64,000 nt of DNA. Source: an uncultured Dehalococcoidaceae bacterium (GTDB lineage Bacteria > Chloroflexota > Dehalococcoidia > Dehalococcoidales > RBG-16-60-22). The stretch lies in NCBI GenBank assembly GCA_964468755.1, contig CAYXWH010000002.1, forward strand, positions 5,444 to 69,443, written 5' to 3'. The notes under the pieces are model-generated. The model had not been told where the DNA came from, ran no database searches, and saw only the letters and a program-made list of their open reading frames with translations. Positions within the stretch are counted from its first letter, which is position 1. Every line of letters starts with the position of its first letter. This document shows, piece after piece, positions 24,420 through 54,028 of the stretch. The position numbers were made by a program, and so were the translations under genes.

Positions 24420-26171
24420 GTGTCTTCAGACGAGTCAGAGCAGCAAAAGCTGGAAATAGTCAGGCATTCTGCGTCTCACGTCATGGCCGAGGCGGTTCAG
24501 TCCATTTTCCCCGATGCCAGGTTTGGCATCGGCCCCGCCATTGAAGATGGGTTTTACTATGACTTTGACCTGCCCCGCACCCTGAGCCCCGATGATTTAC
24601 CGATTATAGAGAAGAAGATGAAGGAAATCATCGCGGCTGACCTGCCCTTTGACCACCGGGAAGCATCCAAGGAAGAAGCCAGGACCATCTTCGCCAATCA
24701 GCCGTACAAACTGGAGTTGGTTGAGGACATTCCCGACGAGAAGGTCAGTATTTACCAGCAGGGCAACTTCGTTGATTTATGCCGGGGTCCCCACGTCAGC
24801 TCCACCGGGCAAGTTCAAGCCTTCAAACTGCTCAGCATTGCCGGCGCCTACTGGCGGGGTGACGAAAGACAGCCCATGCTGCAACGGATTTACGGCGTCG
24901 CCTTTGCCACCGAAGAAGCCCTCACCGATTATTTGCACAAGCTCGATGAAGCCAGCCGGCGCGACCACCGCAAGCTGGGGAAGGAACTTGACCTGTTCAG
25001 TATCCACGAGGAAGCCGGGCCGGGACTGGTCCACTGGCATCCCCGGGGAGCCGCCATACGCCGTGTAATCGAGGACTTCTGGAAAGAAACACACATCAGG
25101 CACGGCTATGATATTGTCTACACCCCGCACATCGCCAAGGCTGACCTGTGGAAAACCAGCGGTCACTGGGAATTCTACCGCGAGAACATGTACAGCCCGA
25201 TGGAAATAGACGAGCAACTCTACGTGCTCAAGCCAATGAACTGCGCCGCGCATATTCTAATCTACAAGACCAGACTGCGCAGCTACCGGGAATTGCCCAT
25301 CCGCTACGCCGAACTGGGCACGGTCTACCGCTATGAGCGCTCCGGCGTGCTGCACGGACTGGCCCGGGTGCGAGGATTCACCCAGGACGACGCCCATATT
25401 TTCTGTCGCTTCGACCAGCTGGAAGAGGAAGTGTCCGGGGTGTTGAGGTTAACCCGGTTTATGATGGAGACCTTCGGTTTTACCAAATACAAGGTGCTGC
25501 TTTCCACCCGACCGGAAAAGTATGCCGGTGAGCTACAGATGTGGGAAGATGCCACGGATATATTACGCCGGTCATTGGAGAACTGCGGTATCAACTATGA
25601 GATTGACCCGGGAGAAGGGGTTTTTTATGGGCCCAAAATAGACACCAAGATTGAAGACGCCCTGGGCAGGCCCTGGCAGGGACCCACGGTTCAGGTGGAT
25701 TTCAACCTGCCCCAGAGGTTCAACGTCACCTATATCGGCGCCGACAGCCAGGAGCACCTGGTAGCCATGGTGCACCGCACCGTGCTGGGCAGCATGGAAC
25801 GCTTTCTGGCTTCACTTATTGAGCACTACGGGGGTGCCTTCCCGGTATGGCTGGCACCGGTGCAGGTACGAATAATACCGGTGGCAGACCGGCACCTGGA
25901 CTACTCCCGTACCATAGAAGCGGAACTAAAGACCGAAGGAATACGGGTGGAAGTGGACGAGCGCTCGGAACGGATAAACCAGAAAATCCGTCAGGCACAA
26001 CTGGAAAAGGTGCCCTATATGCTGATTGTCGGCGACAAAGAGGTGGGCGCGGCTACGTTATCGGTTCGCCTGCGCAGCGGCGAGCAGATGGCAGGCCAGT
26101 CCCTTGAAAATTTCAAGAAAAGGGTATGCAAAGCCATCGCCGAACGGGCAATAGAGATTGGCGCCGATTAG
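24420..26171 (+). CDS. thrS: Threonyl-tRNA synthetase (short form lacking the N-terminal TGS domain)
   Basis: HSASHVMA editing-domain motif within the first 25 aa, class II motifs (RGFTQDDAHIF, HRTVLGSMERF), and an anticodon-binding C-terminus. 583 aa. Confidence 0.9.
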   Translation: MSSDESEQQKLEIVRHSASHVMAEAVQSIFPDARFGIGPAIEDGFYYDFDLPRTLSPDDLPIIEKKMKEIIAADLPFDHREASKEEARTIFANQPYKLELVEDIPDEKVSIYQQGNFVDLCRGPHVSSTGQVQAFKLLSIAGAYWRGDERQPMLQRIYGVAFATEEALTDYLHKLDEASRRDHRKLGKELDLFSIHEEAGPGLVHWHPRGAAIRRVIEDFWKETHIRHGYDIVYTPHIAKADLWKTSGHWEFYRENMYSPMEIDEQLYVLKPMNCAAHILIYKTRLRSYRELPIRYAELGTVYRYERSGVLHGLARVRGFTQDDAHIFCRFDQLEEEVSGVLRLTRFMMETFGFTKYKVLLSTRPEKYAGELQMWEDATDILRRSLENCGINYEIDPGEGVFYGPKIDTKIEDALGRPWQGPTVQVDFNLPQRFNVTYIGADSQEHLVAMVHRTVLGSMERFLASLIEHYGGAFPVWLAPVQVRIIPVADRHLDYSRTIEAELKTEGIRVEVDERSERINQKIRQAQLEKVPYMLIVGDKEVGAATLSVRLRSGEQMAGQSLENFKKRVCKAIAERAIEIGAD

Positions 26172-26217
26172 CACACCATGACGGTTCTGGCAAATAAGCG
26201 TACGGAACATTTTCGGG

Positions 26218-26246
26218 TTGATAAATAGATATGAATGTGCTATAGT
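26218..26246 (+). promoter_or_regulatory. Sigma70-type promoter for infC-rpmI-rplT (TTGATA-17-TGcTATAGT)
   Basis: TTGATA at 26218-26223, a 17-nt spacer ending in TGC, then TATAGT at 26241-26246. Confidence 0.5.
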
Positions 26247-26269
26247 TTTATTTCGTAAGACACCTGTGC

Positions 26270-26860
26270 TTGAAGGAGGTAAATAAGGACATAATTAAGC
26301 AACTGCGTGTTAATGACAGGATTACAGCCAAAGAGATACGTCTGGTGGGGGACAAAGGGGAGCAGTTAGGCGTTATGCCCTTAGCACAGGCACAGGAAAT
26401 GGCCAGGAGATCTGGCCTTGACCTCGTTGAGGTAGCTCCCACCGCAACACCGCCAGTATGCCGCATTCTCGACTACGGCAAATATAAATACCAGCAGGCT
26501 AAAAAAGAGCACGAAGCAAGGAAGAGCCAGAGGGTCTCCCTGCTGAGAGAAATCCGGCTGCGGCCTAAAATCGGCGAGCACGATTTTAACGCTAAAGGCA
26601 GAACTGCCCGAAAGTTGTTATCGAGCGGGGATAAGGTCAAGGTAACGGTGTTGTTTCGGGGACGTGAAATCACCCACCCCGAGCTTGGCTGGAAGCTGCT
26701 GCAACGGATGGCAGATTGGTTGAACGATGTTGCCGTGATGGACAGGCAGCCGGTACTCGAGGGCAAGCGGATGAACATAATTCTGGTACCGGGCGGCGCG
26801 GCAACCAAAAGCAAACACGAGGTAAAGGAAACTCAGAATGCCAAAACAGAAAACACATAA
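26270..26860 (+). CDS. infC: Translation initiation factor IF-3
   Basis: RVNDRITAKEIRLVGDKGEQLGVM...VCRILDYGKYKYQ... is canonical IF-3. The real start is probably non-canonical ATA 26291 or ATT 26294, downstream of SD GGAGG 26274-26278. Confidence 0.85.
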   Translation: MKEVNKDIIKQLRVNDRITAKEIRLVGDKGEQLGVMPLAQAQEMARRSGLDLVEVAPTATPPVCRILDYGKYKYQQAKKEHEARKSQRVSLLREIRLRPKIGEHDFNAKGRTARKLLSSGDKVKVTVLFRGREITHPELGWKLLQRMADWLNDVAVMDRQPVLEGKRMNIILVPGGAATKSKHEVKETQNAKTENT

Positions 26861-27041
26861 AGGGGCGAAAAGCCGCTTCCATATTACCGGCACCGGTAAA
26901 GTTATGCGGATTAAGGGCCCGAAAAGCCACCTGCGCCGTAACAAGACGAGGCGGGTAAAGCGGCTTTTTGACGAGAAAATACCGCTGAACCCCGCTGACC
27001 GGGTACGGATAAAGAGGTTAATACCCTACGGAGTGAAATAG
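26838..27041 (+). CDS. rpmI: 50S ribosomal protein L35
   Basis: MPKQKTHKGAKSRFHITGTGKVMR... is canonical L35. Overlaps the infC 3' end. Confidence 0.9.
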   Translation: MPKQKTHKGAKSRFHITGTGKVMRIKGPKSHLRRNKTRRVKRLFDEKIPLNPADRVRIKRLIPYGVK

Positions 27042-27058
27042 ACAGGAGGGAATGTCTT

Positions 27059-27418
27059 TTGCCAAGAATTAAGAGAGGGACCACCGTCCGTCGTCGACAT
27101 AAGAAGATACTGGCGATGACCAGGGGGCATCGAGGTGCCCGGCATTCCCTGTTTCGGACCGCCAATGAGTCACTGCTGAAATCCCTGAGCTATGCCTACC
27201 GCCATCGGCGCGAGCGTAAGGGCGATATGAGGCGCCTGTGGATTTCACGGATTAACGCCGCCAGTCGAGCTCACGGACTCACTTACGGTCAATTTATCGA
27301 CGGATTGAAAAAATCGGGGATTGAAATCAACCGCAAAATATTAGCCGAGATGGCAGTTTCCGAACCCGAAGCTATAGCTAACCTGGCGACTGTTGCCCGA
27401 GAGAAAGCCCAGAGCTAA
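27059..27418 (+). CDS. rplT: 50S ribosomal protein L20
   Basis: MPRIKRGTTVRRRHKKIL...YAYRHRRERKGDMRRLWI... is canonical L20. TTG start. Confidence 0.9.
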   Translation: MPRIKRGTTVRRRHKKILAMTRGHRGARHSLFRTANESLLKSLSYAYRHRRERKGDMRRLWISRINAASRAHGLTYGQFIDGLKKSGIEINRKILAEMAVSEPEAIANLATVAREKAQS

Positions 27419-27451
27419 ACCACCGGGTGTTGTCCAACCGGGCTTACTCAT

Positions 27452-27490
27452 ATTCCCCTTCCCACCAACCGGGGATGGGGAATTCTTCTT
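27452..27490 (+). terminator. Rho-independent terminator after rplT
   Basis: ATTCCCCTTCCC (27452-27463) pairs with GGGATGGGGAAT (27472-27483): 11 bp with one T:T mismatch and an 8-nt loop. The T-rich tail TCTTCTT follows. Confidence 0.6.
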
Positions 27491-27537
27491 GAAAGACCGG
27501 CTATTGGACGGAGAGAGAGCAGGGCAAAGGCACGACG

Positions 27538-28578
27538 ATGACAGCACAACTTGATGAGCTAGAGTCGAAAGCATTACAGGAACTGGCCGGTATTGACCAG
27601 GTTAAAGAGCTGGATACATGGCGGGTGCGCTACCTGGGTAAGAAGGGAGCGCTGACCGCCATACTGCGCAGCCTGTCATCGCTTTCCCTGGAAGAAAGAA
27701 AGACGGTGGGCAGCCGCGCCAACGAAGTGAAGAAGCTCCTTGAAGACAGCCTGAAACAGAAAGACCAGTCTTTACGAGAGACGCAGTTCACTGCTGACCG
27801 CCAAAAAGAAACCGTGGACGTTACCCTGCCCGGTCGGCCACTGCCGGTCGGTCACCTTCATCCCATCACCCAGACAATAAACGAAATGTGTGACATCTTT
27901 ATGTCCATGGGCTTTCAGGTCATGGGGGGACCCGACGTGGAGTGGGACAGCTATAACTTCGAGGCGCTCAATATCCCCGCCGAACACCCGTCCCGTGATA
28001 CCATGTCGACCTCATGGGTGGACTATCGAAACGAGAGCGACAATATGACCATGCTGCTACGCACCCATACCACATCAGTCACCGCCCGGGTGGTCGAGAC
28101 CATGACACCGCCGATACGGGTCATATATCCGGGTAAAGTCTACCGCTATGAAGCCAGTGACGCCACCCATGTCCCGATGTTCCACCAGATTGACGGATTT
28201 GCCGTTGATAAAGGCATTACCATGGCTGACCTCAAGGGAACGCTTTACGAGTTCGCCCGCCGCTTCTTCGGCGAGGAGCGGAAGGTCCGTTTCCGCTGTG
28301 ATTATTTTCCCTTCGTCGAGCCCGGCGTGGAGATGGCTATCGAATGTTTGAACTGCCGCGGCAGTGGCTGCCGGCTGTGCGGCTACAGCGGCTGGATAGA
28401 AATACTGGGTGCCGGCATGACCCACCCCAAGGTGCTGGAGCGCGGCGGCATCGACTCCAAGGCATATGGCAGCTTTGCCTTTGGTATTGGCATTGACCGG
28501 CTGCCCATGCTCCGCTACGGGATTGATGATGTGAGGCTGTTTTACGGTAACGACCTCCGATTTTTAAGACAGTTCTAG
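27538..28578 (+). CDS. pheS: Phenylalanyl-tRNA synthetase alpha subunit
   Basis: Coiled N-terminus, HPITQ, LLRTHTTSV and FRCDYFPFVEPG class II motifs. Confidence 0.9.
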   Translation: MTAQLDELESKALQELAGIDQVKELDTWRVRYLGKKGALTAILRSLSSLSLEERKTVGSRANEVKKLLEDSLKQKDQSLRETQFTADRQKETVDVTLPGRPLPVGHLHPITQTINEMCDIFMSMGFQVMGGPDVEWDSYNFEALNIPAEHPSRDTMSTSWVDYRNESDNMTMLLRTHTTSVTARVVETMTPPIRVIYPGKVYRYEASDATHVPMFHQIDGFAVDKGITMADLKGTLYEFARRFFGEERKVRFRCDYFPFVEPGVEMAIECLNCRGSGCRLCGYSGWIEILGAGMTHPKVLERGGIDSKAYGSFAFGIGIDRLPMLRYGIDDVRLFYGNDLRFLRQF

Positions 28579-28588
28579 GATTGAAGCA

Positions 28589-30994
28589 ATGAAAGTCCCA
28601 TTGAGCTGGTTAAAGGAATATGTGGATATCACGCTGCCACCCGCGGAGATAGCGGAACGGCTGACCATGGCTGGCAGCGAGGTCAAGGGGATGCAGGTCA
28701 TCGGCGGTAGCTGGGAGAACATTGTTATCGGCCGGATAACGGCGGTTGACCCCCACCCCAACGCCGACCGCCTCCGCCTGACCACCGTAGACCTGGGCAC
28801 CGAAAAGGAGACCGTGGTCTGCGGCGCTCCCAACCTCAATGTCGGCGACAATATCGCTTTTGCCCGTGTCGGGGCACAGCTTATCGACCCGTATAAAGGC
28901 AACATGGTACGGCTGACGCCGGCAAAGATTCGCGGCGTGGTCTCCCGCGGTATGGTCTGTTCGGAAAAAGAACTGGGCATATCCGACAGCCATGAAGGCA
29001 TCATGGTCCTGCCAACGGAGCTACCGGTAGGCGCCCCGCTCGCGGATTACCTGGGGGATACCGTCCTGGATATTGATGTCACCCCCAACCGCCCCGACTG
29101 TCTTTCGGTAATCGGCATCGCCAGAGAAGTGGCGGCACTTACCGGACAAAGCACCCATATCCCGGAAATTGCCTACGCCGAAACCGGGCTACCCATAGAC
29201 GAGCAAATATCAGTGGAAATCATTGACGCTGACCTGTGCGCCCGCTACTGCGCCAGCCTGATAACCGGCATCAAGATAGTCGAGTCCCCGCGCTGGATGC
29301 AGGAACGGCTTGTCGCCTGCGGCATGCGTCCGATAAACAACATAGTTGATATTACCAACTACATAATGCTGGAATACGGGCAGCCCCTGCACTCCTTCGA
29401 CTATGAAAAAATCAGGGACAGGAAAATCATTGTCCGCCGGGCGCAAAACGGGGAGATGATTGAAAGCCTCGATGGGGTAGAACGAACACTGTCCCCCGAT
29501 ATGCTGGTCATCGCTGATGCCGGGCGGGCGGTGGCTATCGCCGGGGTAATGGGCGGCGCCAACAGCGAGGTAACTGAAAACACAACCTCGATATTGCTGG
29601 AAGCCGCCAGCTTTAAACCGGCCAGCATTCACTATACCGCCGCCAGGTTACAGCTTGCCAGTGAAGCCTCGATGCGTTTTGAGCGTGGCATCCGCCCCGG
29701 ACTGACCATCCCCGCCCTGAAACACGCCACCCGCCTGATTGCCGAGTTGGGCGGTGGCAAAGTCGCCGGGGGCATCGCCGATGTCTACCCGGGGGAAACG
29801 GAGCCGGAACCGATAAGGCTGTCCACCAGCCAGGCTACACGAATTTCCGGCGTGGAGTTCAGCCTGAAGCAGATAACCGAAACGCTGACATACCTTGGCT
29901 TTAATGTCAGCTCCGCCGGTAACGATACTGAAGTCCTGGTCACCGCTCCCTACTGGCGAAATGATATCAGCCTGGAAGTCGACCTTATCGAGGAAGTCGC
30001 CCGCATCGTCGGCTATGACCGGATTCCCATGACCATGCTCAGCGAGCCGATACCCCCGCACAACCCCGACCCGCTCCCCGGCTTTACCCGGAAAGTAAGG
30101 AATTGCCTGGTGGGTCACGGCTTTCAGGAGCTTGTCACCTATTCACTGGTCGGCTGGGATACGCTACTCAAGCTACTTCCGGAAACCGGACAACCGGAAC
30201 CGGTGCCACTGCGTTTAGCCAATCCAATGACCGCCGAGCAGGAATATCTGCGGCCAAACCTCCGTGCCAACCTGCTCACCGCCCTGGCGAGCAACCGGCG
30301 GTATGAAGACGGCACAATACGACTCTTTGAGCTGGGCAAAGTATACCTGCCCCGCGAGAAAGAGCTTCCTGAAGAGCCGGAGTTCCTCTGCGCCGTGATA
30401 AGCGGTGCCAGAGTCGAGGAATCATGGCTGGGCGAGGCGCAGCCGCCGGGCTTCTTTGATACCAAGGGTATTGTCGAGAACCTGCTCGGCAATTTACAAG
30501 TGAACGCTGACTTTGAGCCGTCTCATGACCAGAGCCTGCACCCGTCCCGGCAAGCCGCCGTCATCATTGGTGGGAACCGATTGGGAATACTCGGTGAAGT
30601 CCACCCCAGGGTTATTGAGGCGTTCGACCTTGAAGATAAAACTTACCTGTTTGAACTCAATGTGAAGGCGCTGCTGCCATTCGTCAGCGAGCACAGAATG
30701 TACCAGCCGGTCCCCCGCTTCCCCGGCATTGTCCGCGATATCGCCCTGACTGTTGATTTGGAAACGAGCCACCGCCGGATTGAGGAGATTATCCGCGGTT
30801 TCCCGCTGGTAAGCGGAGTCACCGTCTTCGACGTATACACGGGAAAGCAGGTGCCACCGGGGAAGAAATCCCTCGCCTATCGCATTGTCTACCGGTCACC
30901 GGAACATACGCTGGTTGATGACGAGGTGAACAAAGTCCAGGAGAAAATCCTGAAGCAGCTCTCCCGACAACTCGGAGCTACCCTGCGCGCTTGA
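28589..30994 (+). CDS. pheT: Phenylalanyl-tRNA synthetase beta subunit
   Basis: MKVPLSWLKEYVD N-terminus, tRNA-binding domain (HPNADRLRL), and B3/4, B5 and FDX-ACB regions. 801 aa. Confidence 0.9.
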   Translation: MKVPLSWLKEYVDITLPPAEIAERLTMAGSEVKGMQVIGGSWENIVIGRITAVDPHPNADRLRLTTVDLGTEKETVVCGAPNLNVGDNIAFARVGAQLIDPYKGNMVRLTPAKIRGVVSRGMVCSEKELGISDSHEGIMVLPTELPVGAPLADYLGDTVLDIDVTPNRPDCLSVIGIAREVAALTGQSTHIPEIAYAETGLPIDEQISVEIIDADLCARYCASLITGIKIVESPRWMQERLVACGMRPINNIVDITNYIMLEYGQPLHSFDYEKIRDRKIIVRRAQNGEMIESLDGVERTLSPDMLVIADAGRAVAIAGVMGGANSEVTENTTSILLEAASFKPASIHYTAARLQLASEASMRFERGIRPGLTIPALKHATRLIAELGGGKVAGGIADVYPGETEPEPIRLSTSQATRISGVEFSLKQITETLTYLGFNVSSAGNDTEVLVTAPYWRNDISLEVDLIEEVARIVGYDRIPMTMLSEPIPPHNPDPLPGFTRKVRNCLVGHGFQELVTYSLVGWDTLLKLLPETGQPEPVPLRLANPMTAEQEYLRPNLRANLLTALASNRRYEDGTIRLFELGKVYLPREKELPEEPEFLCAVISGARVEESWLGEAQPPGFFDTKGIVENLLGNLQVNADFEPSHDQSLHPSRQAAVIIGGNRLGILGEVHPRVIEAFDLEDKTYLFELNVKALLPFVSEHRMYQPVPRFPGIVRDIALTVDLETSHRRIEEIIRGFPLVSGVTVFDVYTGKQVPPGKKSLAYRIVYRSPEHTLVDDEVNKVQEKILKQLSRQLGATLRA

Positions 30995-47776: not shown

Positions 47777-48005
47777 ATTGCTACTCCCGGTCACCTCCAC
47801 CACTTTCCATTGTATCTATATTATACCACACCAGAAAAGAGAAAAAGAAACCTGTCAAGCTGACCACCCAAACCGGCAAAACCGGTACGCTCGAATTTTA
47901 GAAAATATTTACATCGGGATGCCCGAAATTTAGATGATATTTACTTGGCATGGACTATACTCTCAACCTGAGAAGAGTAAATAAACTCAAGGAGAGGAGC
48001 GACTG

Positions 48006-49064
48006 GTGCTTGAATCCAAGGGGAACGTACTCATTGTCGACGACGAGGAAATTATACGATGGATACTGCACAGGAAGCTGTCCAAGGAAGGCTACACCTG
48101 CGACGAGGCCGGCGACGCTGAACAGGCACTGACCAAACTGAAGGTTGACCCCCGCGAATTGGTCGTTTTGGACATAAATATGCCCGGTAGAGCCGGCAAT
48201 GAGCTACTCCCGCAAATACGGACCGCCTTTCCGGAAACAGCCGTTGTCATGGCGAGCGGAGTTACTGACACCAAGGTCATCGCCCAGTGTATCCGTGATG
48301 GCGCTCATGACTATATCTGCAAGCCATTTCGGCTGGAAGAGGTCTTAGTTAGTATTGGCCGGGCGCTGGAAAAGCGGCGACTGGAACTCCAGATACTGGA
48401 ATGCCAGAAAAACCTGGGGAACAAGTTCAAGCAACAGGTTACCGAAATACGCAAGCTCTTCCTCAGTGCCATCGAGACCCTGGTTGCCTCGCTTGAAGCG
48501 GCTGACCCATATACGGCGGGGCATTCCAAAGAAGTCACCGCTATCGCTCTGAACATCGGGCGGCGACTGGAACTTCCGGCAGAACGGTTGGAAGACCTCA
48601 ACTGGGGAGCCCTGCTCCACGATGTTGGTAAAATTGCCGTCGACCCGCGCATCCTTAACAAACCGGATAAACTTAACCCTGAAGAGTACCGGCACATCAT
48701 GACTCACGCCGTGGTAGGACCCGGTCTGGTACGCCCGCTGGTCAACAGCAGAGTAGTGGAAATCATCTCCCACCACCATGACCGCTACGATGGCAAAGGG
48801 CTTGACCAGATCATCGCTGGTGAGGAAATACCACTGGAAGCGAGAATCGTAACTGTCGCCGACGCCTTCAATGCCATGATTTCGGACCGGCCCTATCGGG
48901 CGGCCATGACTCCTGAAGAAGCCCTTGATGAAGTGAAGAGGAATAGCGGTACTCAATTTGACCCGATGATTGCCAGCGTACTGCTCGAGATGGCAACCGA
49001 AACCCCGCGCAGGTCAAAACCGGCAAATTCGCCGACACCAATCGGGCACAAACCCGGTATGTAA
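48006..49064 (+). CDS. Response regulator receiver fused to an HD-GYP-type (HD-superfamily) phosphohydrolase domain
   Basis: REC domain (VLIVDDEE...DINMPG...K). The HD domain has HSKEV, HDVGK and HHHDRYDGKG. The GYP tripeptide itself is absent (DGKGLD). Confidence 0.8.
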   Translation: MLESKGNVLIVDDEEIIRWILHRKLSKEGYTCDEAGDAEQALTKLKVDPRELVVLDINMPGRAGNELLPQIRTAFPETAVVMASGVTDTKVIAQCIRDGAHDYICKPFRLEEVLVSIGRALEKRRLELQILECQKNLGNKFKQQVTEIRKLFLSAIETLVASLEAADPYTAGHSKEVTAIALNIGRRLELPAERLEDLNWGALLHDVGKIAVDPRILNKPDKLNPEEYRHIMTHAVVGPGLVRPLVNSRVVEIISHHHDRYDGKGLDQIIAGEEIPLEARIVTVADAFNAMISDRPYRAAMTPEEALDEVKRNSGTQFDPMIASVLLEMATETPRRSKPANSPTPIGHKPGM

Positions 49065-49139
49065 TCAGAACCGGTGCCGTAGCCCCGCATTTATGTCATT
49101 TAAATTATCTTCATATGCCCCAAAAAACAGGCAATACTC

Positions 49140-49168
49140 TTGAAATCTTCAATTTCTTGTGATATAGT
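49140..49168 (+). promoter_or_regulatory. Sigma70-type promoter with extended -10 (TTGAAA-17-TGaTATAGT)
   Basis: TTGAAA at 49140-49145, a 17-nt spacer ending in TGA, then TATAGT at 49163-49168. Predicted TSS near 49175. Confidence 0.5.
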
Positions 49169-49198
49169 ATGTCGGAATTAGATTTGGGAAATGCGTTT

Positions 49199-49258
49199 AT
49201 GCAACTGAACTACTACGCATCATATTACTATTACGCGTATTATTACCATGAGCGCTAA
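49199..49258 (+). CDS. Candidate regulatory leader peptide MQLNYYASYYYYAYYYHER (9 Tyr of 19 codons)
   Basis: My own translation. ATG 49199 lies 8 nt after GGGAA, and the stop TAA is at 49256-49258. It is below the 60-aa cutoff of the ORF track. Its 3' end and stop are embedded in alternative RNA helices. Confidence 0.45.
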   Translation: MQLNYYASYYYYAYYYHER

Positions 49259-49323
49259 CAGTGCTCTTGGGGGCTGGTTGCATAAAAAAGATAAAGCGCA
49301 CTAAATAAAAAAGAAAACCAAGC

Positions 49324-49352
49324 AAAAACCCTCCCAAGAAGGAGGGTTTTTT
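49324..49352 (+). terminator. Intrinsic terminator (attenuator segment 3:4) upstream of the TRAP operon
   Basis: AAAAACCCTCC (49324-49334) pairs with GGAGGGTTTTT (41-51), with loop CAAGAA and a T6 run at 49347-49352. Confidence 0.65.
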
Positions 49353-49454
49353 AATTATAAGGCACCATGGTGAAAATTGTGAGCTGAGGTGGTGATACCA
49401 TGTAGACAGGCAGAGAACAAAATGGAAAATAACAAAAATTTCTGGAGGTGACAT

Positions 49455-50549
49455 ATGAAAAAAATAGTACCCCTGTTACTATTGCCGTTGCTACTAGTCC
49501 TGCCTCTATTTGGTGCCTGTACCGCTCAAGAACCAGAGGTAATTGAACTATCCTACAGTAACTTCTTCCCGCCAACCCACTTCCACTCCATACTGGCCGA
49601 GCAATGGACAAAAGAGATTGAGAACCGCACCGACGGCCAGGTCAAGTTCACCTACTATCCGGGCAGTGCCTTGCTCGCCAAAGACCAGGTGTATGATGGT
49701 ATCGTTCAGGGTATCGCCGATGTCGGCATGTCCTGCCTTATCTATACCGCCGGCCGTTTTCCCGCCAGTGAGCTGGTTGACCTCCCCCATGCCTATCCCA
49801 ACGGATGGGTCGCCACCAAGGTAGCCAATGACTTCTACCAGGAGTTCACGCCCGCCGAATTCGATGATGCTCACCTGCTTTATTTTCACGCCCACGGTCC
49901 GGGGGTAATTTTCACCGCCGAAAAGCCGGTACGTAAAATGGACGACCTCAAGGGACTGTTAATAAGAGCAACCGGGGCTGGCGTAAGAATAATGGAAGCC
50001 CTGGGGGCAACCGGGCATGGCGCCGGTCAGCCGGAGGCTTACGAGTTGCTGTCCAAGGGCATAGTCGACGGCACCTATACCCCGCGTGAAGTACTCAAAG
50101 GCTGGAAGCAAGCCGAGGTAGTCAACTACGTAACCAATTGCTACCAGGTCGGTAATACCACTGATATGTACGTGGCTATGAACAAGGACAAGTGGAATGC
50201 CCTTCCCGATGATATCAAGAAGGTGTTTACCGAGGTCAGCCAGGAGTGGATAGAGAAACACGGTATGGTCTGGGACTACTATGACAAGGTAGCCGTTGAG
50301 TACTTCCTCACCTTCGAGGGCAGGGAAGTAATCGAACTGCCGGCCGAGGAAATGGCGCGCTGGGTAGCCGCCACTGAAGGCGTAATCACCGATTACCTGG
50401 ATGAGCTTACCGGTAAAGGACTGCCGGCTGCGGATTACCAGGAATACCTGAATGAACGCGTAGCCTACTGGTCCCAGCAGTCGCCATCGACCGATCAGAG
50501 TGTCAACTGGGTAAAGTCCGAAGTGGAACCGCTGGTACCGGCACAATAA
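49455..50549 (+). CDS. TRAP transporter substrate-binding protein (DctP family), lipoprotein
   Basis: Signal peptide ending LFGAC. DctP-like body about 340 aa long, including an LIRATGAG region with an Arg that could be the DctP-family carboxylate-binding residue (not aligned). SD GGAGG before the ATG. Confidence 0.85.
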   Translation: MKKIVPLLLLPLLLVLPLFGACTAQEPEVIELSYSNFFPPTHFHSILAEQWTKEIENRTDGQVKFTYYPGSALLAKDQVYDGIVQGIADVGMSCLIYTAGRFPASELVDLPHAYPNGWVATKVANDFYQEFTPAEFDDAHLLYFHAHGPGVIFTAEKPVRKMDDLKGLLIRATGAGVRIMEALGATGHGAGQPEAYELLSKGIVDGTYTPREVLKGWKQAEVVNYVTNCYQVGNTTDMYVAMNKDKWNALPDDIKKVFTEVSQEWIEKHGMVWDYYDKVAVEYFLTFEGREVIELPAEEMARWVAATEGVITDYLDELTGKGLPAADYQEYLNERVAYWSQQSPSTDQSVNWVKSEVEPLVPAQ

Positions 50550-50637
50550 ACTCTGGTACAATAACTATCAGTGGTTTTATGGGGGTGCCTGTTTGGAGCC
50601 AGTTCCGACAGGTACCCCCACAGTGTGATTGAGTAAC

Positions 50638-51138
50638 ATGTCAGGCAAGATTGACTCATGGACAAAGTTCACCGAATCGTGTAGCAAGTGGCTCAATTGG
50701 ATCGGCGGTGTCGGTCTGGTGGCAATGCTTGTTCTTACCACCACCGATATTATCGGCGTCAAGCTCTTCAAGTGGCCCGTCCCCGGCGCCGTTGAGATGG
50801 TCGGCTTTCTGGGCGCGATGATAATTTCCTTTGCCATGGCGTACACCCTGTTCGTTCGCGGTCATATTCAGGTGGAATTCTTTGTCCAGCACCTGCCCCG
50901 GCGAGGTCAGGCAGCAACCACCGCCATCGTCTCCCTGCTGGGGCTGGGGCTGTTTGTCCTGCTTGCCTGGCAGAGCTACGAGTACGGCCGTGTGCTCCAA
51001 ATCACCGGAGAAGTTTCCATGACCCAGCGTATACCCTTTTATCCCTTCGTCTACGCGATTGCCTTTTGCTGTATCCCCGTCTGCCTGGTACTGGTGATGG
51101 ACTTCACCAAATCGATAATGAAAGTGGTGAAAAAGTGA
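50638..51138 (+). CDS. TRAP transporter small permease (DctQ family)
   Basis: About 166 aa with four hydrophobic segments. Positioned between the DctP and DctM genes. Confidence 0.8.
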   Translation: MSGKIDSWTKFTESCSKWLNWIGGVGLVAMLVLTTTDIIGVKLFKWPVPGAVEMVGFLGAMIISFAMAYTLFVRGHIQVEFFVQHLPRRGQAATTAIVSLLGLGLFVLLAWQSYEYGRVLQITGEVSMTQRIPFYPFVYAIAFCCIPVCLVLVMDFTKSIMKVVKK

Positions 51139-52439
51139 GTCCGGTTGCAATTGGCATCATCGGCATTTTCGTCCTGATTTTGATTTTTCTCCTGGGAATG
51201 CCGGTGGGCTTCGCCATGGGCCTGGTCGGGCTGGCTGGTTTCTGCTATCTGGTCTCCCCGGAAGCAGGATTGAGCCTGCTGGCGCGGGATGTCTTCACCA
51301 CGTTCTCTTCATACTCCCTTACCGTGATACCCATGTTTGTCTTCATGGGCTCAATTGCCTACGCATCAGGCATGAGCCGTCGGCTCTACGAAGCCAGTCA
51401 CACCCTGTTCGGCGAAATGCGCGGGGGGCTTATTATGGCAACCATTGCCGGCTGCGCCGGCTTCGCTGCCATCTGTGGCTCTACCAGTGCCACTGCCGCC
51501 GCCATGGGCCGGGTATCCCTCCCCGAAATGAAACGATATAAGTACAATGACGCCCTGGCTACCGGCAGTGTCGCCGCCGCCGGCAGTCTGGGAATATTAA
51601 TCCCGCCCAGTACCATTTTCATTGTTTACGGGATACTGACCGAGCAGTCCATCGGCAGGCTTTTCCTCGCCGGGGTTTTCCCCGGGATTATCCTCGCCTC
51701 ACTCTTCATGGTTACCGTGGCGGTCATCTGCTGGCGGTACCCCCACCTCGCCCCGGCCGGAGAACCGACCAGCTACCGCGAGAAAATTGAAGGTATCACC
51801 GGCATCAGCGAGATGCTCGTCCTCTTTGTCATGGTAATGGGCGGGCTGTTTCTCGGCTGGTTCAGCCCGGTGCAGGCTGGCGCCGCCGGAGCCGCCGGTG
51901 CTCTGCTCATCGGGCTTGCCCGACGGCAGTTAAACTGGGACGGGTTCCTCTTTGCCGTCAAGGACACCCTGAAGGTGACCTGCGAGATTATCGTCATCGT
52001 TACCGGCGCGGTGATACTGGGTCACTTCATCGCTGTTGCCAAGATTCCCTTTATCCTGACACAGTGGGTAAGCGAACTTTCCCTGCCCACGGTAGTGGTG
52101 ATGGGCGTGATTGTCCTGATGTACCTGTTCGGTGGTTTCTTCATGGACGCGCTTGCCCTGATTACCCTGACCATCCCCATCATCTACCCGCTGGTGCTGT
52201 CCCTCGGCTTTGACCCGATATGGTTCGGTGTGATAATAGTATTGGTGACCGAAATGGGAGTAATTACACCCCCGGTGGGTATCAACGTATACGTTATCAA
52301 GGGAATTGCCGAGGATGTGTCTCTGGAAACCATCTTTAAAGGAGTTTTCCCCTTCCTTATCGCGCTGATTGTTGCCGTAGGGATACTAATTGCCTTTCCC
52401 CAGATTGCCACTTTTCTACCCGGTATGGCCACCTATTAA
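51135..52439 (+). CDS. TRAP transporter large permease (DctM family)
   Basis: About 434-aa polytopic protein. GTG 51135 overlaps the dctQ stop (GTGA). The ORF track's earlier start at 51066 lies inside dctQ. Confidence 0.85.
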   Translation: MSPVAIGIIGIFVLILIFLLGMPVGFAMGLVGLAGFCYLVSPEAGLSLLARDVFTTFSSYSLTVIPMFVFMGSIAYASGMSRRLYEASHTLFGEMRGGLIMATIAGCAGFAAICGSTSATAAAMGRVSLPEMKRYKYNDALATGSVAAAGSLGILIPPSTIFIVYGILTEQSIGRLFLAGVFPGIILASLFMVTVAVICWRYPHLAPAGEPTSYREKIEGITGISEMLVLFVMVMGGLFLGWFSPVQAGAAGAAGALLIGLARRQLNWDGFLFAVKDTLKVTCEIIVIVTGAVILGHFIAVAKIPFILTQWVSELSLPTVVVMGVIVLMYLFGGFFMDALALITLTIPIIYPLVLSLGFDPIWFGVIIVLVTEMGVITPPVGINVYVIKGIAEDVSLETIFKGVFPFLIALIVAVGILIAFPQIATFLPGMATY

Positions 52440-52480
52440 GCCGGCCGGTATGACCGCCCTTGCAGGAGGTACATAAAACA

Positions 52481-54028
52481 ATGACCATAGCCGAGATGCT
52501 GGCAAGAAACGCCCGCATGTACCCGGAAGATAGTGCCCTCATTGAACTCAAGCCGAGCCAGAAGCTCCGAAAGGAAATCAACTGGAAGACGTTTGATGAA
52601 CGGGCTAACCGGATTGCCGGTGCGCTTATGCAACGAGGAGTGGGCAAAGGCGATAAAGTCATCCACCTGATGATGAACTCGATAGAATGGCTGGAAGCCT
52701 ACTTCGGCATCATCAGGACCGGCGCCTGGGCTGTACCACTCAACTTTCGCTTTACCAGCCAGGACATCAAGTACTGCGCTGACATTGCCGAAGCCAGGGC
52801 AATGATACTGGGCGAGGAGTTTATTGAGCGCGTGGCAGCCGTCCGCTCCCGGCTTACCACGATTAAAGACTATATTTACGTCGGCGCGACAACACCACCG
52901 GACATGGAAAGCTTCGAGGACATAATTGCCGCATCACCGGCCGAGCCCCCGGCAGTACCGCTCAATGATGACGATGCCTGCGGGCTCTACTTTACCTCGG
53001 GCACTACCGGTACTCCCAAGCCGATTCTGCTCACGCACAAGAATATGGAATGTGCCGCCATCACCGAGAACCGGCACCATTTTCAGCAGCATGATGATAA
53101 TTTTATCCTGCTGCCTCCCCTGTACCATACCGGTGCCAAGATGCACTGGTTCGGCAGCCTGATTGTCGGCGGGCGGGCTACCATCCTGACCGAAATAAGC
53201 CCCCGGTATATCTTTGATGCCGTCCATAGCGAACGGGGAACGATTGTCTGGCTGCTGGTGCCCTGGGCGCAGGATATTCTCAGCGTCATGGACAGTGGTG
53301 AGTTGAACAAAACCGACTACGACCTCAGTTGCTGGCGGCTGATGCACATCGGCGCCCAGCCGGTGCCGCCCAGCCTGGTGCAACACTGGCTACAATACTT
53401 CCCCCGTATGCAGTATGACACCAATTACGGACTGAGTGAGTCCAGCGGGCCTGGCTGCGTGCATCTCGGCATCGATAATATACAGAAAGTGGGGGCTATC
53501 GGCAGGGCCGGGTTTAACTGGGAAGCACGGATTGTTGATACCCAGGGAACCGACGTGGCCCGGGCAGAAATCGGCGAACTCGTTATCAGGGGTAACGGCG
53601 TGATGAAGGAGTACTACAAGAATCCACGGCAAACCGCCGAAACCATACGAGACGGCTGGCTGTATACCGGGGATATGGCCCGGGTGGACGATGAAGGATT
53701 TATCTACCTGGTCGACCGGAAAAAGGACGTCATCATCACCGGCGGCGAGAATATCTTCCCGGTGGAGATAGAAGATGTGCTGCACGGTCATCCCGGCATC
53801 TATGATGCGGCGGTAATCGGCATCCCTGACCAACGACTGGGGGAGATAGCCGCCGCCGTTATTGACCCCAAACCCGGTGCACAATTGACCGAGGATGAGG
53901 TGAATGCCTTTTGCGAGCAGGAATTACCGAGGTATAAGCGGCCAAGACGCATCATATTCGATAACGTGCCGCGAAATCCCACCGGCAAGATAGAAAAACC
54001 GAAACTAAAAGAGAAATACCACCAGTAG
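52481..54028 (+). CDS. AMP-forming acyl-CoA ligase (ANL superfamily)
   Basis: YFTSGTTGTPKP (P-loop-like motif), YGLSE, GWLYTGDMA, GENIFPVEIE and PRNPTGKIEK. ATG 52481 lies 11 nt after AGGAGG. Confidence 0.85.
   Translation: MTIAEMLARNARMYPEDSALIELKPSQKLRKEINWKTFDERANRIAGALMQRGVGKGDKVIHLMMNSIEWLEAYFGIIRTGAWAVPLNFRFTSQDIKYCADIAEARAMILGEEFIERVAAVRSRLTTIKDYIYVGATTPPDMESFEDIIAASPAEPPAVPLNDDDACGLYFTSGTTGTPKPILLTHKNMECAAITENRHHFQQHDDNFILLPPLYHTGAKMHWFGSLIVGGRATILTEISPRYIFDAVHSERGTIVWLLVPWAQDILSVMDSGELNKTDYDLSCWRLMHIGAQPVPPSLVQHWLQYFPRMQYDTNYGLSESSGPGCVHLGIDNIQKVGAIGRAGFNWEARIVDTQGTDVARAEIGELVIRGNGVMKEYYKNPRQTAETIRDGWLYTGDMARVDDEGFIYLVDRKKDVIITGGENIFPVEIEDVLHGHPGIYDAAVIGIPDQRLGEIAAAVIDPKPGAQLTEDEVNAFCEQELPRYKRPRRIIFDNVPRNPTGKIEKPKLKEKYHQ

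Follow-up and report, generated by a model that had tools for sequence, protein, structure and literature searches.

A conserved tyrosine-codon leader upstream of a TRAP transporter operon in Dehalococcoidales, a probable leader-peptide attenuator

This study deals with a short leader element in front of a tripartite ATP-independent periplasmic (TRAP) transporter operon on a 64-kb stretch of DNA from an uncultured Dehalococcoidaceae bacterium (Chloroflexota, Dehalococcoidales). The stretch as a whole is referred to as the window, and positions are given in its numbering; the leader region was read at 48900-49600. The element combines a promoter, a short open reading frame (ORF) rich in tyrosine (Tyr) codons and an intrinsic terminator. 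It is a real and conserved regulatory element. Its parts, its conservation, the covariation of its helices and a fold switch that depends on the position of the ribosome are all found in silico.

The leader element and the operon behind it

The element begins with a sigma-70-type promoter on the plus strand (49140-49168), which consists of the -35 box TTGAAA (49140-49145), a 17-nt spacer and the extended -10 box TGaTATAGT (49160-49168). It reaches 10 of 12 matches plus the TG in a consensus scan and predicts a transcription start near 49175. A weak Shine-Dalgarno-like GGGAA (49186-49190) is located 8 nt upstream of the ATG of the leader ORF (49199-49258, plus strand), which comprises 19 codons (MQLNYYASYYYYAYYYHER) and ends with the stop codon TAA at 49256-49258. 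Nine of the 19 codons encode Tyr (TAC five times, TAT four times), with the putative regulatory Tyr codons at 49211-49246, and the ORF also holds an asparagine (Asn, AAC) and a histidine (His, CAT) codon. In all six frames, exactly one stop-free stretch of the window contains at least six Tyr per 12 residues. Since no run of this density occurred among 200 random 64-kb sequences generated by a first-order Markov model with the dinucleotide statistics of the window, the Tyr run of the leader is not due to chance.

The RNA downstream of the Tyr run can form three helices. Segment 1 (49246-49255, CCATGAGCGC), which would be covered by a ribosome stalled on the final Tyr codons, is the 5' arm of the 1:2 hairpin, the anti-antiterminator. 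Its partner is GTGCTCTTGG (49261-49270), and the loop between them contains the stop codon TAA. Segment 2 (49261-49279) supplies the 3' arm of this hairpin and, with 49266-49279 (CTTGGGGG..GGTT), the 5' strand of the antiterminator. The latter pairs with segment 3 (49327-49338, AACCCTCCCAAG); calculated as a duplex of the two segments, this pairing comprises 13 bp with -16.6 kcal/mol. The alternative partner of segment 3 is segment 4, with which it forms the intrinsic terminator (49324-49352), built from an A5-CCCTCC stem, a 6-nt loop, a GGAGGG-T5 stem and a T6 run at 49347-49352. In this helix, CCCTCC (49329-49334) pairs with GGAGGG (49341-49346), extended by A5/U5 pairing. Antiterminator and terminator are mutually exclusive, as both use 49327-49338. 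The three helices are of similar stability (-14.2 kcal/mol for 1:2, -15.7 kcal/mol for 2:3 and -15.9 kcal/mol for 3:4), and the fold of the whole leader has a z-score of -5.25 against shuffled sequences.

An initial annotation of this DNA, made from the sequence alone, had placed the promoter, the ORF, the three helices, the T6 run and the dctP start at these positions, and all of them match the sequence base for base. The three helices it described are confirmed, but it had missed a further long-range helix that is part of the minimum free energy structure, in which the region of the leader start codon (49190-49207) pairs with GGTTGCATAAA...AAAGCGCACT (49276-49302) just downstream of segment 2. 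A similar pairing with a compensatory indel is present in one relative (L001); on the strength of these two sequences, the helix may keep ribosomes after the first from translating the leader.

The terminator is also detected on the minus strand, as the A5 tract on its 5' side and the T6 run on its 3' side give it a bidirectional look. Since no convergent gene ends there, the second orientation is probably a by-product of the A-U pairs that extend the stem. Two other readings of the region were discarded. The hairpin is not the terminator of the response-regulator gene upstream, because the strong promoter intervenes, and an 85-aa ORF on the minus strand (49197-49454) is not a gene, as the orthologue alignment of the region contains non-triplet indels.

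The first gene under the presumed control of the leader is dctP (49455-50549, plus strand), which encodes the TRAP substrate-binding lipoprotein (Pfam DctP, 4.6e-40). Its ATG at 49455 lies 102 nt past the T-run and has its own GGAGG at 49445-49449. On the same strand follow dctQ (50629-51138; Pfam DctQ) for the small TRAP membrane subunit, dctM (51135-52439; Pfam DctM, 6.9e-96) for the large TRAP permease, and a gene for an AMP-forming acyl-coenzyme A (CoA) ligase of the FadD/4CL-like type (52460-54028; Pfam AMP-binding plus AMP-binding_C), with which the operon ends in the window. The start of dctM is probably GTG 51135, overlapping the dctQ stop codon; the mechanically predicted ORF begins at 51066, and the homologues have 434 aa.

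Conservation of the Tyr codons and of the RNA switch

Relatives were collected by a DctP profile search of contigs from one genome per species and of Joint Genome Institute (JGI) metagenomes. This gave 160 loci, nearly all from metagenome-assembled genomes (MAGs) of Dehalococcoidales, Dehalococcoidia or Chloroflexota, and European Nucleotide Archive (ENA) assemblies added four more. Leaders were scanned for blindly, as short ORFs with at least four Tyr in eight residues. Among the close orthologues whose upstream sequence was long enough, nearly all have a Tyr-run ORF ahead of the operon, and these loci fall into about nine lineages of Dehalococcoidales/Chloroflexota MAGs and metagenome contigs. 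The contigs Ga0180432_10006206 and Ga0180431_10005319 match the window with 100% identity over dctP and share its leader ORF. Apart from the window, whose leader is identical in L081 and L082, leaders were located in L001-L006, L052, L054, L083, L084, L087, L096-L099, L112-L114, L120, L128-L130, L141, L147 and L161-L164. More than 25 distinct orthologous and paralogous leaders hold the Tyr run in frame with the start codon.

Their common layout, from which L141 departs by the loss of the terminator, starts with a strong promoter; the short ORF with the Tyr run in frame and then a GCTTGGGAG segment follow, and the last part is a terminator that complements this segment with its 5' arm and loop. 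Examples of the leader peptides are MRLTYYTRSYYYLYYYPER (L001), MLVYIVPCGLYYAYYYYYYAVP (L003), MYLALLASYYYSYYMYYMQSCGSSAWEGAT (L006), MYRVSYGAYTYTYYYPGSISCSWERGL (L083), MKAYKVFQVYYYSYYYGSTKCAWEAFGIEM (L112) and MYLALQALYYYPYYYAGAIRQAWELVAE (L164). The leaders are 19 to 40 codons long and contain 6-11 Tyr each, or 3-5 Tyr plus phenylalanine (Phe) or tryptophan (Trp) in the mixed paralogues described below. A TTGACA-17/18-TAnnnT box is found upstream of every orthologous leader, and its -10 end lies 24-32 nt before the ATG with the exception of three loci (L005, L054 and L128), where the distance is 14-15 nt and the chosen start codon is uncertain.

The position of the leader relative to the operon genes differs between the loci. 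In L002, L003, L005, L128, L129/L130 and L163, the order is leader, ligase and dctPQM, so that the leader fronts the ligase. Wherever a related locus is long enough to show the neighbours, ligase and dctPQM are linked, except in L052 and L054, which carry an orphan dctP. In these two loci (L052 5688-7014, L054 5669-7014), a Tyr leader with its terminator is located about 30 nt upstream of dctP, the encoded protein has a long linker rich in proline, alanine and threonine, no dctQM follows, and the next genes are on the opposite strand. In L141 (1738-1893), the Tyr leader ORF is kept with one Tyr codon changed to an arginine codon, and the terminator hairpin is deleted; this copy may be naturally de-attenuated or decaying, or an assembly variant.

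That the repeats act as codons is indicated by their variation, for which the leaders that could be aligned were counted in four clusters. Here, the 29 Tyr-codon columns are variable at codon positions 1, 2 and 3 in 1, 2 and 5 cases, as opposed to 20, 18 and 19 cases for the 73 other codon columns. As the Tyr codons vary mainly at the third position and the others at all three, the identity of Tyr is under selection and the rest of the peptide not, a pattern which is the signature of regulatory codons. Gaps between lineages inside the Tyr run are multiples of three. The initial annotation had proposed looking for a conserved in-frame run and for TAC/TAT third-position variation, and the orthologues display both.

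These observations also bear on the idea that the ORF encodes a functional Tyr-rich micropeptide, such as a precursor of a ribosomally synthesised and post-translationally modified peptide or a membrane peptide, the hairpin being the terminator of a small gene or small RNA. Promoter, short ORF and strong terminator do form a self-contained unit of about 180 nt. However, the peptide is not conserved apart from Tyr, the A/S-W-E at its C-terminus follows from the RNA segment GCTTGGGAG, and its length varies over the range given above. In addition, no modifying enzyme or exporter is encoded nearby, the unit is always located directly upstream of the same transporter/ligase operon on the same strand, no search for a second promoter having been made, and terminator and dctP are only about 30 nt apart in L052 and L054. 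We therefore consider a micropeptide very unlikely.

The strongest argument for codons comes from paralogues. A covariance model of the RNA that follows the Tyr run found one copy in the window (95.6 bits) and additional copies in other loci, whose leaders contain mixed aromatic codons. The copy in L112/L113 (4178-4080, minus strand; ...VYLFSYYFSFSRTKCAWEAFGIEM) has the run YLFSYYFSF and is followed by a gene for an ABC_sub_bind protein, and the one in L147 (3047-2955, minus strand; ...VYYFGFYFWRTKCAWEAFGMEA) has the run YYFGFYFW and is followed by a LivJ/LivH-like ATP-binding cassette (ABC) system. A third copy, in L141 (92-1, minus strand), reads ...VYFFSFYFW..., its downstream gene lying beyond the contig edge. 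The fourth (L129 1196-1249; L130 about 22-136; MMFYIAPGYLYYVFYMQT) has the run GYLYYVFY and precedes a ligase-dctPQM-iorAB operon. Mixed aromatic codons on one RNA scaffold would be expected of sensors of tRNA charging, whereas neither a DNA operator nor an RNA-binding protein accounts for them easily. Pure Phe, Trp, His, cysteine or methionine leaders were searched for upstream of more distant dctP paralogues, and none were found.

The antiterminator is conserved as well. The segment 2 core (G)CTTGGGAG is kept in all family members, and the 5' arm and loop of the terminator are complementary to it. From a plain MAFFT alignment of 20 leaders, RNAalifold returned the antiterminator 2:3 unprompted as the consensus structure, with 10 pairs of which four are compensatory. 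On a MAFFT alignment of 22 leaders, 80.7% of the cells pair in this helix, a value reached by 0 of 500 column shuffles and compared with 33-60% in slid registers; on an alignment fitted to the terminator only, 80% of the cells pair as opposed to at most 61% in slid registers. Such column-wise counts understate the covariation, as the GCGCTGGGGGG group is aligned one register off; its sequences do pair in per-sequence duplexes of segments 2 and 3, which comprise 8-14 bp with -9.6 to -26.6 kcal/mol in every sequence. The loop bases of the terminator covary with segment 2 (CTTG/CAAG, GCTG/CAGC and CCTG/CAGG with wobble intermediates), and at the loop edge U-A and G-C pairs replace each other between loop and segment 2. 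These bases are not constrained by the terminator and yet change together with segment 2. The terminator itself pairs in 91% of the cells of the fitted covariance-model alignment, with six compensatory pairs and 0 of 500 shuffles reaching this value, and its energies range from -13.8 to -20.9 kcal/mol across the family.

As an alternative, the TATTAC/TACTAC repeats had been ascribed to a DNA operator when the element was first annotated, which would be one for a TyrR-like repressor. The position of these short direct repeats, 35-70 bp downstream of the promoter, would fit this. The repeats have no dyad symmetry, however, and their number, their spacing and the choice between TAT and TAC differ among the orthologues, whereas the frame and its start and stop codons stay the same. 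The triplets follow each other without gaps in every case and share the frame of the ATG, the paralogues swap in Phe and Trp codons, and the covarying RNA switch always accompanies the element. Nor is a regulator gene conserved next to it, as the upstream genes vary (HD-GYP response regulator, 2-hydroxyacid dehydrogenase, aminotransferase, DeoC-family). An operator is thus extremely unlikely.

A slight probability remains for a tyrosine-activated RNA-binding protein or a small-molecule riboswitch acting on the same terminator/antiterminator pair, with the UAY repeats as the binding site and the ORF as incidental. UAU/UAC triplet repeats just upstream of such a pair and the modest strength of the leader Shine-Dalgarno sequences would fit this. 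Bacillus subtilis TRAP (trp RNA-binding attenuation protein, not to be confused with the transporter) binds about 9-11 (G/U)AG triplets with 2-3 nt spacers, which overlap the antiterminator. In our leaders, by contrast, the UAY triplets are contiguous and located upstream of segment 1. They stay in a single frame with no internal stop in all of the more than 25 sequences, and this frame opens with a start codon at the conserved distance from the -10 box, with the exception of the three loci mentioned. The stop codon is positioned where a terminating ribosome would block the antiterminator, the Tyr codons vary mainly at the third position, and the changes from Tyr to Phe or Trp in the paralogues, which take one or two bases, preserve the aromatic class and not an RNA motif. 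Finally, no Rfam family matches.

Ribosome position and the proposed attenuation mechanism

To relate the fold to the position of the ribosome, the nascent transcript was folded up to the terminator loop with the RNA masked to 12 nt past the A-site codon, the footprint being an assumption. In the window, 0 antiterminator pairs form without a ribosome, as 1:2 forms instead, 10-12 form whichever of the last four Tyr codons is occupied by the ribosome, and six form when it has reached the stop codon. In the relatives, a stall inside the Tyr run leaves 7-14 antiterminator pairs, with lower values in several loci for one or two of the Tyr codons. A ribosome at the stop codon brings the number to 0, except in L001, which has six like the window. 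The stop codon is located either just upstream of segment 2 or, in most relatives, 10-25 nt downstream of it. In the latter case the ORF runs through segment 2, so that the translating ribosome itself would block 2:3.

According to the mechanism we propose for the window, transcription would start from the strong promoter near 49175 and a ribosome would load onto the leader ORF. With plentiful charged tRNA-Tyr, the ribosome would reach the stop codon at 49256 and cover the start of segment 2, and the 1:2 hairpin would reform; segment 3 would then pair with segment 4 and RNA polymerase would terminate at the T-run 49347-49352. When charged tRNA-Tyr is scarce, the ribosome would stall in the last Tyr codons (49232-49246) and cover segment 1. 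The freed segment 2 (CTTGGGGG..GGTT) would pair with segment 3 (AACCCTCCCAAG) before segment 4 has been transcribed, which would block the terminator and allow dctPQM and the CoA ligase to be transcribed.

Several findings weigh against this mechanism. In about two thirds of the relatives, the antiterminator forms without a ribosome, which would give readthrough without translation. If the full-length leader is folded at equilibrium, the terminator prevails in most sequences in spite of the stall mask, in the window as well, and the switch must consequently be kinetic. The masked folding suggested in the initial annotation therefore yields a switch only if the RNA is folded before segment 4 exists, and the full-length leader does not flip. 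In the trp leader of Escherichia coli, 3:4 is likewise more stable than 2:3 and the choice is kinetic. Helix 1:2 is stable in the window and in L001, but the hairpins preceding segment 2 in the relatives use other registers, and a single homologous 1:2 helix was sought across the MAFFT alignment and could not be defined. Compensatory changes, which the initial annotation had asked for in all three helices, are accordingly found in 2:3 (four pairs) and 3:4 (six pairs) and not in a common 1:2 helix, and its four-segment picture holds for the window and L001 but not for most relatives, where the ORF reads through segment 2. The purine-rich Shine-Dalgarno-like stretches at the equivalent place in the orthologues are weak to moderate, and the mechanism presupposes a coupling of transcription and translation, which we infer for Dehalococcoidia.

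Except for a 1:2 helix that is homologous throughout the family, every sequence-level feature of an attenuator that could be tested is present. In view of the conserved in-frame Tyr run, the codon variation and the covariation of 2:3, the element can be regarded, as it was when first annotated and with a probability of roughly 80%, as a ribosome-mediated (leader-peptide) transcription attenuator with Tyr regulatory codons. It most likely turns the operon on under tyrosine shortage.

An attenuator of the same type might also respond to another signal, namely the queuosine modification of tRNA, general translation stress or a ligand-triggered arrest of the nascent peptide as in TnaC. Tyr codons belong to the NAY codons read by Q34 tRNAs, and the window leader also contains the Asn and His codons mentioned. 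Across the lineages, however, the Tyr codons alone are conserved while Asn and His codons drift, the Phe and Trp codons that appear in addition in the paralogues are not decoded by Q34 tRNAs, and a conserved arrest motif is lacking. The linked iorAB, ligase and aminotransferase genes suit the supply of aromatic amino acids. Another signal is quite improbable compared with the charging of tRNA-Tyr.

The closest known systems are the pheL-pheA and trpL-trpEDCBA leaders of E. coli. They resemble the element in the promoter-proximal short ORF with a run of codons for one aromatic amino acid, in the exclusive 1:2, 2:3 and 3:4 helices ending in an intrinsic terminator, in the stop codon next to segment 2, in balanced helix energies with a kinetic decision, and in a possible secondary helix that shuts off leader translation. 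They differ in that the codons here are for Tyr (9 of 19 in the window, 6-11 in the leaders of relatives), that there is no sequence homology, that in most relatives of the window leader the ORF reads through segment 2, that the host belongs to the Chloroflexota (Dehalococcoidales) and not to the Proteobacteria, and that the genes under control encode a TRAP transporter with a CoA ligase, joined by iorAB in relatives, and not a biosynthetic enzyme of the shikimate branch. At permissive as well as gathering thresholds, Rfam returned only sub-threshold matches driven by the terminator (Phe, Thr and Leu leaders, small RNAs). Phe_leader (RF01859) scored 28.2 bits against a threshold of 55, Thr_leader (RF00506) 21.5 against 55 and Leu_leader (RF00512) 20.0 against 50, with alignments essentially to the terminator alone.

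The Salmonella leaders mgtL and mgtP (mgtA/mgtCBR) sense proline and Mg2+ and act by Rho-dependent or structural switching on genes including a P-type ATPase. As in our case, translation of a leader ORF controls a transporter gene and not a biosynthetic enzyme, whereas the window has an intrinsic terminator switch and a TRAP target.

With regard to Tyr, the T-boxes of Firmicutes (e.g. of tyrS) also sense the charging of tRNA-Tyr through a terminator/antiterminator switch upstream of Tyr-related genes, but they bind the uncharged tRNA directly and translation is not needed. The T-box covariance model gave no match at E <= 10 in 48000-50500 and none at the gathering score in the window. T-boxes are otherwise credited with RNA-level regulation by tyrosine (PMC1262725). 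A survey from 2005 lists predicted attenuators ahead of tyrA operons, the passages concerned giving no detail of the leaders (PMC1173090). In Corynebacterium glutamicum, the aroR leader upstream of aroF contains a single Tyr within Phe-Tyr-Phe and is summarised as responding to Phe limitation, with no effect of Tyr availability (Neshat et al., 2014, as described in PMC11802643). On this description, aroR shares with our element Tyr among the aromatic regulatory residues, ribosome stalling and the link to aromatic amino-acid supply, but the long pure Tyr run sets the latter apart, and the mixed paralogues (L112/L113, L147, L141 and L129/L130) are closer to aroR in spirit.

The initial annotation knew of no characterised Tyr-run leader. 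Our literature searches found none either, aroR as described in the source cited above being the nearest, and they returned nothing relevant on attenuation in Chloroflexi or on Dehalococcoidia with indolepyruvate and TRAP. What is new is therefore the specificity for Tyr, the phylum Chloroflexota (Dehalococcoidales) and the TRAP transporter as target, the mechanism being deduced in silico; the trp-type logic itself is classical.

Operon function, neighbourhood and significance

Attenuators respond with higher expression to a shortage of the amino acid they sense, and the products of the operon should therefore supply tyrosine. TRAP systems import carboxylates. The nearest solved structures of DctP are 4n6d and 4pgn/4pgp/4nap, and 4NAP, 4PGN and 4PGP are presumably binders of indole acids or tryptophan. 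For 4NAP, binding of a D-amino acid is reported (PMC10443332), and the known ligands of the DctP family include indole acids (PMC5812351). The relatives of the ligase in the PDB include feruloyl-CoA and 4-coumarate-CoA ligases.

Further indications come from the ligase-first operons. In four of the four such loci with enough downstream sequence, iorA and iorB for an indolepyruvate:ferredoxin oxidoreductase are located directly downstream of dctM (L005 6800-9310; L089, in L089/L003, 8027-10535; L130 4938-7445; L002 5211-6479, truncated), and iorA scores 807 and 800 bits against TIGR03336 with a cutoff of 651. A class I/II aminotransferase gene adjoins the leader in L147. Methanococcus maripaludis has an aryl-acid route to aromatic amino acids via this oxidoreductase, in which aryl acids from outside are activated, reductively carboxylated to arylpyruvates and transaminated (Porat et al., cited in PMC4162585). 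As far as this source describes it, the gene set of ligase plus iorAB is what the related operons have in common with the pathway, which differs in being archaeal (PMC4162585). The combination of importer, AMP-forming ligase and oxidoreductase matches this route and suggests the salvage of 4-hydroxyphenylacetate or a close analogue. The aryl acid would be taken up by the TRAP transporter, activated by the AMP-forming CoA ligase, reductively carboxylated by indolepyruvate:ferredoxin oxidoreductase to 4-hydroxyphenylpyruvate and transaminated. To our knowledge, the M. maripaludis pathway has no dedicated TRAP importer or attenuator.

Two observations speak against such a function in the window. 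iorAB was looked for in the 64-kb window and is absent, and in NCBIfam the ligase matches generic fatty-acyl/aryl CoA ligase subfamilies alone, below the cutoffs. On the basis of gene content, we give at best about an even chance to the view that the operon serves to convert an aryl acid from outside the cell, most likely 4-hydroxyphenylacetate or an analogue close to it, into tyrosine.

The neighbours of the leader vary from locus to locus. In the window and in L001, a response regulator with an HD-GYP domain is encoded upstream, on the same strand as the leader in the window, and other loci have other genes at this place. A D-2-hydroxyacid dehydrogenase gene is divergent from the leader in L005 (812-1870, minus strand) and L163 (16-999, minus strand); the aminotransferase gene of L147 (3378-4565, plus strand) and a gene for a DeoC-family aldolase in L164 (204-1256, plus strand) likewise flank the leader. 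The dehydrogenase, aminotransferase and aldolase genes could fit the metabolism of aromatic keto- or hydroxy-acids. Downstream of the ligase, the window encodes a glutamine synthetase with its own promoter-like site, and the rest of it is housekeeping (thrS-infC-rplT-pheST, proS, metG, ispG, dxr, ftsH). No tRNA genes are present in the window, and no Rfam family reaches its gathering score anywhere in it; this includes the cluster thrS-infC-rplT-pheS-pheT (24420-30994), which is without a T-box, L20 leader or other Rfam match at this score.

The 5' untranslated region of dctP contains a start-stop mini-ORF (49387-49406, plus strand), in which the Shine-Dalgarno sequence AGGTGGTGAT is followed by ATG (49401-49403) and directly by TAG (49404-49406). 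Such mini-ORFs occur in 40 of 140 distinct dctP upstream regions as opposed to 2.6% of shuffles, and the ATG is kept while the stop varies (TAA 17, TGA 16, TAG 7). They are also found in loci without a Tyr leader and, in L113, downstream of the paralogous attenuator. Start-stops have been documented by ribosome profiling in E. coli (preprint 10.1101/520783).

Taken together, the element in the window may found a Dehalococcoidia family of aromatic leader-peptide attenuators, in which one scaffold is re-targeted by its codon content, from pure Tyr in front of TRAP plus ligase (plus iorAB) to mixed Tyr/Phe/Trp in front of ABC uptake, and the Tyr version would mark an unrecognised bacterial salvage of 4-hydroxyphenylacetate to tyrosine. 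As a whole, this combined reading is tentative and stands at somewhat less than even odds. Leader-peptide attenuation would gain Tyr, an amino acid for which no characterised example was found. The paralogues with swapped codons, which would sense different amino acids on one scaffold, lend themselves to the study of regulatory evolution as a natural experiment. Since the metabolite supplied by an operon can be read from its attenuator, the Tyr run would label the function of the TRAP substrate-binding protein, the FadD-like ligase and iorAB, a widespread gene set of unknown specificity in uncultured sediment bacteria. If this is true, abundant uncultured Chloroflexota of sediments would depend on scavenged aromatic precursors.

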